The notes beneath the pieces are model-generated. The model did not search any database. It had not been told where the DNA came from and saw only the letters and a program-made list of their open reading frames with translations. From a virus: a stretch of DNA of 37,702 nucleotides. How positions within the stretch are numbered: the first letter of the stretch is position 1; each line of letters begins with the position of its first letter. The stretch is from IMG/VR virus record IMGVR_UViG_3300012931_000011, positions 1 through 37,702 of that record; one strand, written 5' to 3'. Made by a program: the position numbers and the translations under genes. Below, one piece after another: positions 4,481 through 23,953 of the stretch.

Positions 4481-5029
4481 TTATCGCTTTTGTTGATATG
4501 GTGCTGATGCCATCATTTTTAAAATTGAACCTATTGAAGGGGCTATAGCGCTCATACCGCCAGTAAGTCCAGCACCCAACGCATTCATACCAACAGAAGA
4601 AAGCGCAGGCAATATTTGTTGTAATAATCCTTCTTGACCTTGTGTGGCATAACTTTCTAATTGTGGAGTAAGACCTAAACCAAGCATATTAAGCATTTGA
4701 TTTCTATTTTGCATACCATATTGGCTTTGTAGAGCTGCTAATCCACCTTCTAAGTTAGCCCCAGCTTGCCCTAGTTCAGTTTTCAATGCCCCTGAACTCA
4801 TAGCATTATTCCCTAATGACTGGAACCGTTCCATGATGCTAGGTAACGTTTGTTGTTGGAACTGTGTGCGGGCTTGATTAGCAATAGGTTCAAACCCAGC
4901 ATAAGGATTCTGCATCCCTTGCATACCCATATTCATTAATGAAGATAAAGTATTCTGTTGCTGCGGAACAAATCTATTAACTTGTCCTACGCCGGCAGGT
5001 TGTCCTAAAAAGAATGAAGACCAATCCAT
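4481..5029 (-). CDS. Gly/Gln/Met-rich virion protein (possible internal protein)
   Basis: SD ttAGGAGAGtactATG. Low-complexity G/Q/M/N composition. Confidence 0.55.
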   Translation of the reverse strand: MDWSSFFLGQPAGVGQVNRFVPQQQNTLSSLMNMGMQGMQNPYAGFEPIANQARTQFQQQTLPSIMERFQSLGNNAMSSGALKTELGQAGANLEGGLAALQSQYGMQNRNQMLNMLGLGLTPQLESYATQGQEGLLQQILPALSSVGMNALGAGLTGGMSAIAPSIGSILKMMASAPYQQKR

Positions 5030-11332: not shown

Positions 11333-11968
11333 TTACGATAGGGTTGCCCTGAGATTGGTGATCCATAAATCATTCAATATTCGAGGGACCTCTGCGAATA
11401 CATATCCTAAGGTAACGTTTTGGAACAATGGGTCACTGTACACAGCAGGACGATAGAGGAACCGTGCTGAATAATTGTCCTGTTCAACGCACGCCAATGA
11501 TTCCATCCCCTGAACAATGATTGAATAGACATCATTGCCAAGTGCAGATGCGTTTGGCGTGATTGCGCCTTGTGAAGACAGCATGAAACGGCAGTTATTG
11601 ACCGATCCCCACTCTGATCTCAAGACATTGTTTTCAGATGGATAATTCCATTTTGAAACAAAACCATTTATATTATTCAATTCTTTTGATAATCTTGTGT
11701 GCCCTAATGCCAAATAGGAATCCCTTACTGGGCCTGTGCCGAAGCGGTCCTCGCCTTCAATATTATCCAATATCATGAATGCATCGTTTGTAAGCAATGC
11801 AGATGTAACTTCATCAATGTCAGATAAAGATAAATTTGTTGGCGTATCGCCGTTTACTCCGCCAACACAGTTAACCATACCAGCTGTTGCTGTGAGCATA
11901 TCACGAGTGAGCTGATCTTCTGTCATACGCAATGATAGCCCTAAAAGTTCGGCTGTTTCATTGAGAAC
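11333..11968 (-). CDS. Capsid exon 4 (C-terminal 211 aa)
   Basis: In frame with ORF 11333..11971. The apparent ATG at 11969-11971 is the intron 3 terminus ...AGAAUG. Confidence 0.75.
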   Translation of the reverse strand, partial: VLNETAELLGLSLRMTEDQLTRDMLTATAGMVNCVGGVNGDTPTNLSLSDIDEVTSALLTNDAFMILDNIEGEDRFGTGPVRDSYLALGHTRLSKELNNINGFVSKWNYPSENNVLRSEWGSVNNCRFMLSSQGAITPNASALGNDVYSIIVQGMESLACVEQDNYSARFLYRPAVYSDPLFQNVTLGYVFAEVPRILNDLWITNLRATLS

Positions 11969-14364
11969 CATTCTGTTACTTTATGACCTATCTCTAGGCG
12001 GGGAAACTTCTTCGAATCTCCCTCACTACCTTATCGTGTAGTGTTCAGACTATCGCATACCATTTCTGGTTCTTTTCGTTTAGTCGTTCAGCCTGGACTA
12101 GCAATTCTGCTTCGTGTATAATTATATAGTATAATTGTTTAAATTTAATGAGGATTTCATGGGAAAAACACGAAGACAATATTATAAAAGATCTAAAGAT
12201 TATATTCCGCAACAATACAAATCTACTGATTTGGCTTATATGGCAGGAATTGTTGATGGAGAAGGATGTTTTTATATTGGCAAAGTTCCCAAAAAAGCTG
12301 GAGATGGATATGTTTCCGAACATTATCGAGGTCTTTTGAAAATTGATAATACCAATCAAAGATTGATAAATTGGATTGATAATGTTTTTAGCGGTACTGC
12401 ATCTGCTCGCTGCAGAACAACTTCCAGCAAAAAATTTGAGCGCGATATTTTTACATGGAATTCTACTGGAGATCGACTGCTTGATATATGCGAACAGCTG
12501 TTGCCATACCTTGTTATAAAAAAAGAACAATGCGAAATCATGATTAAGTTTAGAAAAACATACAATGCATCGCTGGGAAGTCATGTGCTTCCTATGGGCG
12601 CACTTGAATCTAGACAGCAGTGTTTGGAAGAAATTCGTAAACTTAATTCGCGATGGCATTTACATCCTTTGAAAAATATTTAAATCCTAGTCCTTGGCCC
12701 TTGTTACCGGTTAGCTAATTGCTACTTCGGACTTCAAGTCAATTAGAAAAGATTTATAGACCCCATACTTTTTAGGGTCTTGGTTCTGTAGTGTACATTA
12801 TTCTGTTACTTTTATGACCTATTTCTAGGCGGGGACTTTCTCTACTTATCCCTCTCTAAGTTATCCCTAGAGTTCAGAGCACCGCATCCATGGGATCATT
12901 ATTATCTACATAAGGTATGTCAATTCCGCCGTTAGCCATTTTCTCTTTAATTTTTTTCGAACAAATATCGCAAAATTTTATAACAGTTTCTTGCTTACTG
13001 GATCTTGCAAATATAACTTTTAAAAGACATTTACTACATAGATAATTTTTTTTATTTCCCATAGTCTTCTCGCTTGCTACGTTCAGGCTGATTAGGAAAT
13101 GGGAAATCATCTTCATAAATCCAATGGGTTATTTCTTTTTCTATACCCCAATATTCGTCAATATTTACAAATAAATTAGATTTATTAGAGAATTTGTCTA
13201 CTCTGTAATCACCATGAAATAACTCATTGCTTTGTGAACAAAGAATTAATGGTTTGCTGATTTCAGGCATAACACTTTTTATATTATTCCATTTCATAAT
13301 CTTGCCCCTTGTCGCCGGTTAGTTGAATACCACTTCGGTTTCCAAGTCTATCAGAGAAGATTTAAAGCAGGCTACAATATTATTTTTAACCTGCTGGTTG
13401 ATAGCAACATACAATCCATAAAATGACATTGTTGCATCGATATCAACACGTGTTAAAGGTGTGGCTGGTGGTGTTGCCCCAGAAGGACCAAGAGGTACTG
13501 GTGCTGTAGGCAATCTATCATACCTAGCCATACGCAATGTACGACCACCTTTAGAAGGTAATCTTTTAGAGATAGCTCCGAGCTTGTAAATCAAATTAGG
13601 TGTTCTTACCGATAGTAAGATATCATCCATAGTTTGCTGGACCATTCTATTACTTTATGACCTGTTGCCAGGCGGGTAGTCATTTCTGCTACCTCTTATA
13701 GTTTCCTATAAGATTGGATCATCGCATACCTTCTCAGGTCCTCGAGGCTTGATCTCTGCGCCTACTTTATTAGCATTAAGCTCTCGCATCTTTTGATACG
13801 CTTGCTCACGATAATTTAACTCGTTTTCAGTTAACCTAATATGCCTTTGGCCAATATCTTTATAATTACCTTTTTCACAAAATTCCAACAAATGTAATGC
13901 TCTTTCTTTTTTATTGTGTAAATAGGGCAATATCCCATGCAAAAAAGTTAAAAGATCTTTTTTATTTGTTATACGCCATTCATATAAAGGTAAACTATTA
14001 GGTCTAGATTTACGAGTGCCACTGATTATTATGCTGCCCAATCCGGTTTCTTTTTTGATGTAATTGATAGAACCATTATTAATCATAGTTATCTTTACGC
14101 ACGGTAAATAATCATATCTATATTTTCTAAAATATTTACCAATCATAAAACATCCGTCAGAATCCATAATTGCTGCCGCATAAATCCAATGCGTTTGGCT
14201 CTGGTTATCTTGCATATCATATCCTTTATTATATTCAACACTTCCTGTGCGAGTATAGCAGAACGAACGTGATATGTTTAGACTTTCCATGTAATCACTC
14301 AAGGTTTAACGCGCCCTATCTCTCAAAAAGGCGCCGGGAGCGTAGTTGTAGTAGTTATTGGCAT
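11333..14364 (-). CDS. Major capsid protein (HK97-fold, N4-gp56-like family by recall), four exons: 14364-14329, 13642-13389, 12795-12774, 11968-11333
   Basis: Exon lengths sum to 36+254+22+636 = 948 nt, giving 315 aa plus stop with no frame break. Spliced product: MPITTTTTLPAP|VQQTMDD...YVAINQQV|TLQNQDP|VLNETAELLG...SDPLFQNVTLGYVFAEVPRILNDLW.... SD aAAGGAGtttagttATG at 14364. Confidence 0.8.
11969..12773 (-). mobile_element. Group I-like intron 3 (805 nt) of the capsid gene
   Basis: P1: exon AGACCCU pairs with intron GGGGUCU, with a G.U at the splice site. 3' end GGUCAUAAAGUAACAGAAUG. Candidate P7: GACUA (12085-12081, inside CUGAACGACUAAA, R-like) with UAGUC (12052-12048, inside GCGAUAGUC, S-like). 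A 7-bp stem (12095-12101 / 12687-12693) encloses the endonuclease gene. Confidence 0.75.
12159..12683 (+). CDS. LAGLIDADG homing endonuclease (single-motif, 174 aa), antisense to its host intron
   Basis: Motif LAYMAGIVDGEGCFYIG. SD aatGAGGAtttcATG. Two TATAAT boxes upstream at about 12115-12133. The overlapping minus-strand ORF 12045..12659 is low-complexity shadow. Confidence 0.85.
   Translation: MGKTRRQYYKRSKDYIPQQYKSTDLAYMAGIVDGEGCFYIGKVPKKAGDGYVSEHYRGLLKIDNTNQRLINWIDNVFSGTASARCRTTSSKKFERDIFTWNSTGDRLLDICEQLLPYLVIKKEQCEIMIKFRKTYNASLGSHVLPMGALESRQQCLEEIRKLNSRWHLHPLKNI
12774..12795 (-). CDS. Capsid exon 3: 22-nt micro-exon u|aca cua cag aac caa gac ccu, encoding (V)TLQNQDP
   Basis: Bounded by the intron 2 terminal G (12796) and the intron 3 5' splice-site U (12774). 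Needed to keep exons 2 and 4 in frame. Confidence 0.7.
12874..13062 (-). CDS. Small CxxC...CxxC zinc-ribbon-like ORF inside intron 2
   Basis: MGNKKNYLCSKC...KFCDICSKK. Start chosen at the internal ATG 13062. Its C-terminal codons overlap the conserved 3' block of the intron. Confidence 0.35.
   Translation of the reverse strand: MGNKKNYLCSKCLLKVIFARSSKQETVIKFCDICSKKIKEKMANGGIDIPYVDNNDPMDAVL
13052..13297 (-). CDS. DUF551-like small ORF inside intron 2
   Basis: MKWNNIKSVMPE...ITHWIYEDDFPFPNQPE resembles, by recall, the DUF551 pattern (W..v.d.lPe ... THWmplPepP). ATG directly follows the conserved 5' block of the intron. Confidence 0.45.
   Translation of the reverse strand: MKWNNIKSVMPEISKPLILCSQSNELFHGDYRVDKFSNKSNLFVNIDEYWGIEKEITHWIYEDDFPFPNQPERSKREDYGK
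13389..13642 (-). CDS. Capsid exon 2 (84 codons + 2 nt)
   Basis: Part of ORF 13319..13645. The ORF's leading ATG is the intron 1 terminus ...AGAAUG, and its tail ...KNNIVACFKSSLIDLETEVVFN is read-through into intron 2. Confidence 0.75.
13643..14328 (-). mobile_element. Group I-like intron 1 (686 nt) of the capsid gene
   Basis: P1: exon GCGCCU pairs with intron GGGCGC, with a G.U at the splice site. 3' end GGUCAUAAAGUAAUAGAAUG. Candidate P7: GAUCA (13754-13750) with UGAUC (13721-13717). The 3' block is homologous to introns 2 and 3. Confidence 0.7.
13706..14215 (-). CDS. LAGLIDADG homing endonuclease (single-motif, 169 aa), sense orientation in intron 1
   Basis: Motif WIYAAAIMDSDGCFMIGKY. 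ATG at 14215 preceded by aAAGGAtatgat. The C-terminal codons overlap the candidate ribozyme core. Confidence 0.8.
   Translation of the reverse strand: MQDNQSQTHWIYAAAIMDSDGCFMIGKYFRKYRYDYLPCVKITMINNGSINYIKKETGLGSIIISGTRKSRPNSLPLYEWRITNKKDLLTFLHGILPYLHNKKERALHLLEFCEKGNYKDIGQRHIRLTENELNYREQAYQKMRELNANKVGAEIKPRGPEKVCDDPIL
14329..14364 (-). CDS. Capsid exon 1 (MPITTTTTLPAP)
   Basis: Strong SD and ATG. The frame hits a stop 2 codons after the proposed splice site. Confidence 0.7.
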
Positions 14365-14416: not shown

Positions 14417-14513
14417 GGACGAAGCTCGATACGTCCTAGCACGGCGAACACCTATACGCCGTTAGAGTATCAGACTCATGGCTGTCGGCACGGCGAACAC
14501 CTATACGCCGTTA
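14417..14513 (-). promoter_or_regulatory. Capsid mRNA leader with three stem-loops, two of them identical 26-nt copies (14439-14464 and 14488-14513)
   Basis: Minus-sense ACGGCG-uauagguguu-CGCCGU occurs twice, and GGACG-uaucgagcuu-CGUCC once (14417-14436). All three have 10-nt loops of the form UAUnGnnnUU. Confidence 0.6.
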
Positions 14514-23355: not shown

Positions 23356-23428
23356 AAAACAATAGCTCAGCGGTTAGAGCATCAGCCTGTTAAGCTGAAG
23401 GTTATTGGTTCAAATCCAATTTGTTTTT
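23356..23428 (+). tRNA. trnN: tRNA-Asn (GUU) with an almost all-A/U acceptor stem
   Basis: Manual cloverleaf: AAAACAA / UA / GCUC-AGCGGUUA-GAGC / A / UCAGC-CUGUUAA-GCUGA / AGGUU / AUUGG-UUCAAAU-CCAAU / UUGUUUU / U. No encoded CCA. Confidence 0.75.
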
Positions 23429-23878: not shown

Positions 23879-23953
23879 TGGCTCCCCGGCTAGGATTCGA
23901 ACCTAGGACCACTCGCTTAACAGGCGATCGCTCTACCACTGAGCTACCGGGGA
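23879..23953 (-). tRNA. trnN: tRNA-Asn (GUU), canonical bacterial type with encoded CCA
   Basis: Manual cloverleaf: UCCCCGG / UA / GCUC-AGUGGUA-GAGC / G / AUCGC-CUGUUAA-GCGAG / UGGUC / CUAGG-UUCGAAU-CCUAG / CCGGGGA / G / CCA. Confidence 0.9.

Follow-up and report, generated by a model that had tools for sequence, protein, structure and literature searches.

In the 37,702-nucleotide (nt) viral sequence IMGVR_UViG_3300012931_000011 (positions 1 to 37,702 of that IMG/VR record; hereafter the window), we identified a minus-strand gene occupying the ~3 kb surrounding positions 12774-12795, which encodes an N4-gp56-type major capsid protein and comprises four exons and three introns, the third exon being only 22 nt in length (Table 1). 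We establish here the exon structure of this gene, the fold of its introns, the pairings that connect introns to exons, and the independent presence and absence among relatives of the two introns bordering the 22-nt segment. This segment, which we refer to as the micro-exon, is very probably a real, spliced exon placed between two independent group I introns. The window represents most of a ~37.7-kb tailed-phage genome in which portal and terminase genes are recognisable. Among 50,697 phage records this phage is without a close relative: a megablast search with the gene returned zero matches, and tblastn recovered only distant capsid proteins of less than 27% identity.

Joining the four exons produces a 948-nt open frame encoding 315 amino acids (aa). 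From a search of 5.8 billion proteins, 1,952 relatives were recovered, the best of which are intact proteins of 314-315 aa sharing up to 85% identity and bearing the source name 'N4-gp56 family major capsid protein'. When 18 of these relatives were aligned, the spliced protein required no gaps against intact homologues, including near the junctions; the segment INQQVTLQNQDPVLNETAELLGLSLRMTEDQLTRD was found to be nearly invariant among the 18 aligned homologues, and the stretch ...INQQVTLQNQDPVLNETAELLG... is identical in the closest of them. The micro-exon itself, UACACUACAGAACCAAGACCCU in the orientation of the window and TACACTACAGAACCAAGACCCT as its reverse complement, contributes the third base of Val97 followed by the seven residues TLQNQDP, and QQVTLQNQDPVLNE is conserved in the intact 314-315-aa homologues. 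An earlier note on this DNA, made from the sequence alone, had listed the same 22 letters, which match the reverse complement of positions 12774-12795 exactly, and had interpreted them as a retained exon encoding (V)TLQNQDP, a reading now corroborated by the presence of TLQNQDP in the intact homologues. The same note had considered that such homologues might be missing an equivalent of TLQNQDP; the segment is present in them, and the reading stands. The chance of a random 22-mer yielding seven specified residues in frame is ~1e-9. Furthermore, omission of the micro-exon causes a frameshift, as had been anticipated for the direct joining of exon 2 to exon 4, and the computed product reaches a stop after nine codons.

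The shortness of the exon had also been emphasized in the earlier note. The length of 22 nt is real, but not out of the ordinary for this intron family, as exons of 12 nt (L167), 27 nt (L092), 33 nt (L119) and 38 nt (L157 and L109) were identified in relatives (related loci are referred to by L-numbers throughout). The 12-nt exon of L167 (minus strand, ~4600-4612 in reversed coordinates) reads AAUAUGAUCCAU / AATATGATCCAT, corresponding to NMIH, and is flanked by two full-length introns of the family; the capsid gene of this locus holds three introns inside its first 32 codons.

The whole 3,032-nt gene of the window was reproduced base for base in an independent Logan assembly (SRR6436070, locus L200), which excludes an artefact of assembly as the source of the arrangement. 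The same gene layout was also seen in a second sequencing run.

Occupancy of the two intron sites in relatives

Survey of the insertion sites of introns 2 and 3, located at Val97 and between residues 104 and 105, respectively, revealed all four possible states among related loci. Neither intron is present in ~97 loci, in which the NEQVTLQNQDPVLN coding sequence is unbroken, while ~30 loci possess only the 104/105 intron (e.g. L185, L140, L186 and L177). Only the Val97 intron, inserted in phase 2, was found in eight distinct alleles (L203, L213, L216, L222, L252, L254, L300 and L389), and both introns co-occur in six distinct loci (the window/L200, L086, L109, L168, L199 and L202). The boundaries in the single-intron alleles fall at exactly the predicted bases, and several more loci were identified in which the intron lies two bases further on, after CCCGU. 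Because each of them occurs alone in other alleles, introns 2 and 3 are separate elements with exact boundaries. Our first set of loci had hinted that the Val97 intron might be an obligate hitch-hiker on the 104/105 intron, a proposal ruled out by the eight alleles that possess the Val97 intron alone. Also ruled out as an intron polymorphism was a 211-nt difference between L055 and L056, the sequence concerned not being an intron of this family.

The exon separating the two introns is exactly 22 nt in length in 6/6 of the doubly occupied loci, including L086, L109, L168 and L199, whose capsid pieces are ~58-79% identical to that of the window by tblastn. The six micro-exons vary at five positions, comprising the third base of the Val, Thr, Gln and Asn codons and the first base of the Leu codon (CUA/UUA). 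All five differences are synonymous, and the last nine bases, CAAGACCCU, are invariant. As the six double alleles vary only synonymously, the 22-mer is being selected for what it encodes.

Fold, pairings and cargo of the intron family

The three introns of the window have common 3' ends, and a search of IMG/VR with the 3'-end motif matched at least 118 contigs (the L081-L198 set). Family introns were found inside homologues of this capsid gene in at least 109 of these contigs, occupying well over a dozen insertion sites clustered in the most conserved protein segments, and a profile built from four copies lacking an open reading frame (ORF) yielded 293 matches, 91 of which are full length. Given that Rfam scans produced no group I match, the fold was derived by hand and tested by covariation, using an alignment of 61 distinct ORF-less family members. 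The proposed structure consists of P3, P4, P5, P6, P7 (pseudoknotted with P3), P8, P9 and two further 3' hairpins. Across this alignment 95.8% of cells are paired, compared with 39-44% in controls with the partners displaced by 1-3 columns; changes on both sides were observed for 43 of the 50 pairs, and 0/500 shuffles gave values as high. By helix, paired cells amount to 98% for P3 and to 100% for each of P4, P6 and P7.

Within P7, an invariant G-C pair (61/61) lies beside a bulged base, and the outer pair covaries between A-U, G-C and U-A. This is the anatomy usually expected of a guanosine site, and this part of P7 is a candidate for such a site. P5 often bears a receptor-like CCUAAG...UAUGG motif, P2 is absent from the family, and nothing separates P3' from P8. 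The terminal G falls at positions fixed by protein alignment in all three introns of the window, and likewise in L151, L157, L167 and L199. On this predicted fold, the sequences flanking the micro-exon are group I introns of one abundant family, for which self-splicing is predicted.

In nearly every copy a guide of 6-8 nt located upstream of P3 pairs with the end of its own 5' exon, and the guide changes with the insertion site, such that more than 25 different exon/guide pairs were collected. Our guide search demanded a U.G pair, which for this reason provides no independent evidence; the pair was confirmed at junctions defined by homologues. Introns 2 and 3 each follow an exon whose final base is U, and each has the obligatory G as its own last base. 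In intron 2, P1 is formed by GCAGGU of exon 2 with GCCUGC. For intron 3, the P1 put forward in the earlier note, between the last seven exon nucleotides and GGGGUCU, is present with 7 bp and is kept across the readable guides of relatives at this site, which read GGGGUC (in one case GGGAUC, with a matching exon) and mostly extend to GGGGUCU. The P10 put forward for intron 2 (UGUA/UACA) was likewise recovered. Its first pair covaries across 14 alleles, being A-U in 8, G-C in 5 and mismatched in 1 of the 14 distinct Val97-site introns; the second pair is always U-A, and the contiguous run spans 2-4 bp, reaching 4 bp in close relatives of the window. This covariation provides modest but real backing for the intron 2 P10. 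The P10 of intron 3 is weak, consisting of 2 bp recognised by eye.

Both introns bordering the micro-exon retain complete cores. After removal of its ORFs, intron 2 forms all expected pairs of P3 (7/7), P4 (4/4), P6 (6/6) and P7 (6/6), and intron 3, after removal of its single ORF, forms the same numbers of pairs in these four helices together with those of P9.1 (8/8). Introns without ORFs were identified at the site of intron 3, including those of L185 and L140, and at the site of intron 1 in L145 and L131.

The ORF of intron 3 contains a single LAGLIDADG motif (MAGIVDGEG) and is similar to I-MsoI (E 3e-7 over residues 21-132, near full length), I-CvuI (E 9e-3) and phrog_5046 (E 6e-24); its match to I-CreI (E ~0.2) is not significant. 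A promoter-like site, identified by consensus match only, is located just upstream of this ORF at 12094-12122 on the plus strand. Similar antisense LAGLIDADG ORFs of 159-168 aa occur in the Val97-site introns of relatives. Like I-MsoI, I-CreI and I-CvuI, the intron 3 ORF has one LAGLIDADG motif and, at 174 aa, a size typical of homodimers; unlike these enzymes, the putative endonuclease is encoded antisense to its intron and belongs to a phage. The ORF of intron 1 matches phrog_5046 (E 7e-16), and its true start probably lies further downstream than that of the maximal frame.

Within intron 2 of the window, searches of ORF-A and ORF-B against Pfam and PHROG profiles identified no recognisable homing endonuclease. 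ORF-A is weakly DUF551-like at a non-significant E of 0.08, and both ends of ORF-B overlap core strands (P8-J8/7-P7').

A number of further cargo features were noted in the family. Small CxxC...CxxC ORFs recur in place of an endonuclease as cargo of the P6 or P8 loop, in the window as well as in L085, L114, L116 and L140. The 104/105 introns of some relatives hold a large LAGLIDADG-motif ORF in the P1 loop, downstream of the 5' splice site and ahead of the guide (L157:1100-2060, minus strand); two motif-like stretches were recognised in it by eye, and the ORF of the window's intron sits in the P6 loop instead. Reading through from the upstream exon on the minus strand, introns 2 (13317-13388) and 3 (12708-12773) remain open for 20-25 codons, their frames ending at the same conserved UAA inside CUAACCGG (P5), and intron 1 closes after one codon.

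Table 1. Coordinates of the capsid gene, its introns, their pairing elements and ORFs in the window, and of example core-less inserts in related loci.
Feature	Position	Strand	Description	Basis
Exon 1	14329..14364	-	36 nt, ATG..CCU, MPITTTTTLPAP	Alignment to intact homologues
Intron 1	13643..14328	-	686 nt	
Exon 2	13389..13642	-	254 nt, 3' end ...CAGCAGGU	Homologue alignment
Intron 2	12796..13388	-	593 nt, at Val97 codon, phase 2	
Exon 3 (micro-exon)	12774..12795	-	22 nt, U ACA CUA CAG AAC CAA GAC CCU	
Intron 3	11969..12773	-	805 nt, between Pro104 and Val105, phase 0	
Exon 4	11333..11968	-	636 nt including stop, begins GUUCUCAAUGAA (VLNE...)	Homologue alignment
Intron 1 elements	14311-14316; 14298-14304; 13740-13756; 13728-13739; 13643	-	Guide GGGCGC; P3 5' strand; P7/P3'; P8; last G, respectively	
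Intron 1 ORF	13706..14302	-	On the gene's strand; 198 aa maximal; single-motif LAGLIDADG-type	PF00961, phrog_5046
Intron 2 guide region	13367..13376	-	UGUA 13373-13376 (P10 strand), then GCCUGC 13367-13372 (guide)	
Intron 2 core, 5' part	13354-13360; 13342-13348; 13065-13090	-	P3; P4; P6/P7/P3', respectively	
Intron 2 core, 3' part	13057-13064 + 12888-12895; to 12872; 12796-12871; 12796	-	P8 closing stem; J8/7-P7'; P9-P9.2 + tail; last G, respectively	
Intron 2 ORF-A	13052..13297	-	81 aa, P6 loop; last codons overlap P6'-P7-P3'	
Intron 2 ORF-B	12874..13062	-	~62 aa from ATG 13062, P8 loop; CxxC...CxxC; maximal ORF from 13116	
UACA, micro-exon bases 1-4	12792..12795	-	3'-exon strand of intron 2 P10	
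AGACCCU, micro-exon bases 16-22	12774..12780	-	5'-exon strand of intron 3 P1; terminal U pairs with G	
Intron 3 guide GGGGUCU	12758..12764	-		
Intron 3 core, 5' part	12746-12752; 12734-12740; 12687-12705; 12071-12101	-	P3; P4; P4'/P6; P6'-P7-P3', respectively	
Intron 3 core, 3' part	12059-12070; 12043-12058; 11969-12042; 11969	-	P8; J8/7-P7'; P9-P9.2 + tail; last G, respectively	
Intron 3 antisense ORF	12159..12683	+	174 aa from ATG, P6 loop; maximal ORF from 12135; I-MsoI/I-CreI-like single-motif LAGLIDADG	
Core-less inserts (examples)	L168:9074-9104; L199:8443-8470; L086:6225-6259; L129:10422-10459			

Splicing, homing and alternative readings

With respect to the order in which introns 2 and 3 are removed, the anatomy of the micro-exon sets no constraint, since the P10 of intron 2 (exon bases 1-4) and the P1 of intron 3 (exon bases 16-22) do not overlap. 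Each pairing is independent of whether the other intron is in place, and either intron may splice first. In kinetic terms, intron 2 would be fully transcribed ~800 nt ahead of the completion of intron 3, making an order of 2 then 3 likely. Exon skipping, in which exon 2 held in the P1 of intron 2 would attack the 3' splice site of intron 3, is chemically plausible, and the two introns possess very similar cores and 3' tails. Because the P10 strand of intron 2 (UGUA), which would fit UACA of the micro-exon, mismatches GUUC of exon 4, and because the skipped product is out of frame, skipping would be both disfavoured and unproductive.

A sibling locus offers a view of splicing within the family. 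Over 922 + 1,472 nt the 2.4-kb contig L075 matches the 37-kb genome contig L151 with 100% identity, and the two differ solely in a 201-nt family intron (L151:2713-2913) that L075 does not have. What L075 lacks begins precisely with the base following the U of the predicted P1 and ends with the terminal G. L075 and the diverged L073, which originate from different samples, have the same start 140 nt upstream of the capsid ATG; the 3' end of L075 lies just past a hairpin, and five such short contigs start 106-241 nt upstream of the start codon. This suggests that short contigs of the L073/L075 type are assembled transcripts rather than random DNA contigs. Taken together, the L151/L075 pair represents indirect evidence, not proof, that introns of the family are removed in vivo in the predicted manner, and this evidence comes from a sibling locus rather than from the allele of the window.

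The close spacing of the two introns also bears on their mobility, the earlier note having raised the question of how two homing sites of about 20 bp could exist back to back. Homodimers of I-CreI-type enzymes bind ~22-bp targets whose centre lies close to the insertion site. Homing elements usually sit in the most conserved parts of a gene, and introns 2 and 3 interrupt the coding sequence for the best-conserved part of the protein. With insertion sites 22 bp apart, two 11+11-bp footprints would abut and not overlap, and each intron could invade the allele of the other. As the footprints would abut, each enzyme would retain its full site in an allele already holding the other intron. The combination of 22-bp spacing and 22-bp targets could thus let two homing sites coexist, and fits all four allele states, which provide a natural experiment on the packing of homing sites. 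Intron 2 of the window would have lost or replaced its endonuclease, and its spread probably proceeded through a related enzyme acting in trans or through co-conversion with intron 3.

Several observations weigh against interpreting the 22-mer as a spliced exon between two independent mobile group I introns. Among the 5.8 billion proteins searched, a full-length protein identical to the spliced product was not found (best identity 85%), and a metagenome scan for the window's spliced junction (22-nt gap) or skipped junction (0 gap) gave 0 matches. The Rfam model Intron_gpI (RF00028) was unmatched in the window, in 14 related loci and in a 230-nt ORF-less intron, both at the gathering threshold and at a permissive E-value; we regard this as a limit of one model for a very diverse class and not as evidence against the fold. 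The matches of the intron 3 and intron 1 ORFs to PF00961, at 21.4 and 21.2 bits, respectively, fall under the cut-off of 23.1, and the argument from 22-bp targets draws on knowledge of I-CreI-type enzymes. In addition, translation of the intron 2 ORFs that overlap core strands could hamper folding, and ribosomes entering from exon 2 or exon 3 could traverse P1-P5 before meeting a stop.

Of the other explanations considered, the one that survives best, although we judge it quite unlikely, is that the two introns are functionally dependent, either with one core serving both or with skipping being regular or regulated, such that cross-acting sibling ribozymes process the micro-exon. The sibling cores with near-identical 3' tails would permit such an arrangement, the core of intron 2 is burdened by overlapping ORFs, and inserts of 28-54 nt in relatives that lack a core (see below) suggest that a core is able to act at the splice sites of a neighbour. 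For three similar introns of phage Twort, transcripts from which one exon is missing have also been reported (PMC3073962). These points are countered by the complete, fully paired cores and separate guides of both window introns, by the occurrence of each intron alone in other phages, and by a P10 of intron 2 that fits the micro-exon only, with the skipped product being out of frame.

It is very improbable that the gene is a decaying pseudogene of a defective phage, in which the 22-mer would be a remnant flanked by two dead mobile elements and would never enter messenger RNA. Such decay might account for the loss of the intron 2 endonuclease, with two unrelated ORFs now overlapping its core, and for the failure to find a transcript or an identical full-length protein for the window allele. 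It is difficult to reconcile with four exons that remain in frame, free of stops and of gaps relative to homologues, or with the intact core helices of both introns. Moreover, the double arrangement recurs in six distinct loci, with some capsids only ~60% identical and micro-exon changes that are exclusively synonymous, and an identical genome was assembled from independent samples. A composite element (a twintron or one large intron with other true junctions, the 22-mer being exon-like intron sequence) is scarcely credible: alternative use of 3' sites is conceivable between sibling introns with nearly identical 3' ends, yet intact homologues require exactly these seven codons, single-intron alleles show each boundary at the predicted bases, and each intron has a complete core and its own guide. 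A micro-exon spliced between two independent group I introns therefore remains our preferred reading.

Core-less inserts in relatives and comparison with known systems

An insert of 28-54 nt, hereafter a mini-insert, was found directly after the codons for FYG (...UUACGGU) in at least 17 distinct loci that are related to the window but do not include it (examples in Table 1). Each mini-insert contains a P1-like hairpin, in which UUACGGU of the exon pairs with GCCGUAA a few bases downstream and a U.G pair is placed at the junction, followed by a strand of 8-13 nt complementary to the exon sequence that directly precedes the P1 strand of the full-length intron coming next, and by a short tail with a terminal G. 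The catalytic core, P3-P9, is absent. The tether helix formed by the 8-13-nt strand is present in 17/17 mini-inserts, with a mean run of 10.2 bp compared to 5.4 bp for non-cognate combinations, and tracks whichever of four introns lies downstream, at a distance of 26, 48, 50 or 86 nt. Since their stops or frameshifts break the reading frame, the mini-inserts must be removed. A locus 94% identical upstream lacks the mini-insert exactly, and in L128 and L110 full-length introns occupy the same site.

Ribosomal bypass of the mini-inserts was considered and ruled out, as there are no matched take-off and landing codons and no stop right after the Gly codon, and as all mini-inserts start after U and end in G. 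A scan for copies resembling complementary DNA and lacking the mini-insert gave only unrelated insert-free alleles. In the simplest reading, the mini-inserts are deletion derivatives spliced by the core of a neighbouring intron, and to our knowledge they would then be the first examples in nature of non-autonomous ('satellite') group I introns. The broader proposal that neighbouring sibling introns are not autonomous, with one core working on the splice sites of its neighbour, is possible but on balance unlikely. Were it to hold for the window, the cores flanking the 22-nt exon could stand in for one another, intron 2 with its load of ORFs might rely on intron 3, and exon skipping would be a real, possibly tuned, outcome. 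Should RNA data confirm their splicing, the mini-inserts would represent the most significant by-product of the present analysis.

The micro-exon is a further example of a known phenomenon and not a new mechanism. Mini-exons only a few codons long 'occur regularly' between the group I/II introns of cox1 and other mitochondrial genes (PMC10352661). As for those mini-exons, recognition here depended on conserved residues that would otherwise be missing, and many insertion sites are clustered in one conserved gene (PMC10352661). Unlike cox1, the gene examined here is a late structural gene of a bacteriophage with coupled transcription and translation, and its introns all come from a single family of close relatives instead of many subgroups.

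Staphylococcus phage Twort provides a comparison for several related introns within one phage gene. Three similar group I introns interrupt a single gene of this phage, and transcripts lacking one exon have been reported (PMC3073962, citing Landthaler and Shub 1999). The capsid gene of the window resembles this system in being one phage protein gene split by three sibling group I introns, with short internal exons and similar ribozymes that permit skipping. Here, the introns instead interrupt the major capsid gene of an uncultured tailed phage with a genome of ~37.7 kb; skipping would break the reading frame, and none was observed. The family in the window lacks P2 and also lacks P7.1/P7.2, helices that characterise introns of the Twort type (IA2).

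Capsid genes have previously been reported to contain introns in other phages. For mycobacteriophage LittleE, splicing of a capsid-gene intron was demonstrated, the type of intron being unclear but most likely group I, and its opposite-strand endonuclease ORF is LAGLIDADG-like according to the text and HNH according to a figure legend; Tuc2009 has another capsid-gene group I intron (PMC3706429). The introns of the window resemble that of LittleE in the U that ends the 5' exon, the G that ends the intron, and the antisense endonuclease ORF. LittleE differs in possessing one intron and no micro-exon and in belonging to a different phage lineage, with no sign of membership in the family described here.

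An intron without an endonuclease that depends on trans or collaborative homing is known from T4, in the case of mobE and the I-TevIII intron (PMC2790892). By analogy, the persistence of an intron lacking a working endonuclease through help from another element is plausible for intron 2 of the window. The T4 case differs in that the Val97-site introns of relatives bring their own endonuclease and occur alone, so that hitch-hiking is not obligatory there.

Such an intron density, single-family origin and number of sites in one gene of ~950 nt, in a family that escapes Rfam, are unusual for a phage as judged from a full-text search of the literature, in which we found no description of them, and we consider this family context to be of higher interest than the micro-exon itself. 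The arrangement exemplifies tight packing, in which self-splicing introns of a conserved gene are separated by few codons only. Given that gene callers fragment the gene and Rfam misses the introns, the capsid proteins of a widespread phage group are mis-annotated where introns are present. The material is also suited to studying how cross-reaction of sibling ribozymes on one transcript is avoided or exploited, and how introns are tolerated in a very highly expressed late gene.

Elsewhere in the window, the leader of ~245 nt preceding the capsid ATG contains a 25-nt hairpin-forming repeat, AACGGCGTATAGGTGTTCGCCGTGC, in two exact copies (14439-14463 and 14488-14512, minus strand), which may act in RNA processing or regulation. 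L038, L073 and L075 each have a repeat pair of their own in the equivalent leader position. Finally, two transfer RNA genes were identified with Rfam on opposite strands, at 23356-23428 (plus strand, 75 bits) and 23882-23953 (minus strand, 70 bits).

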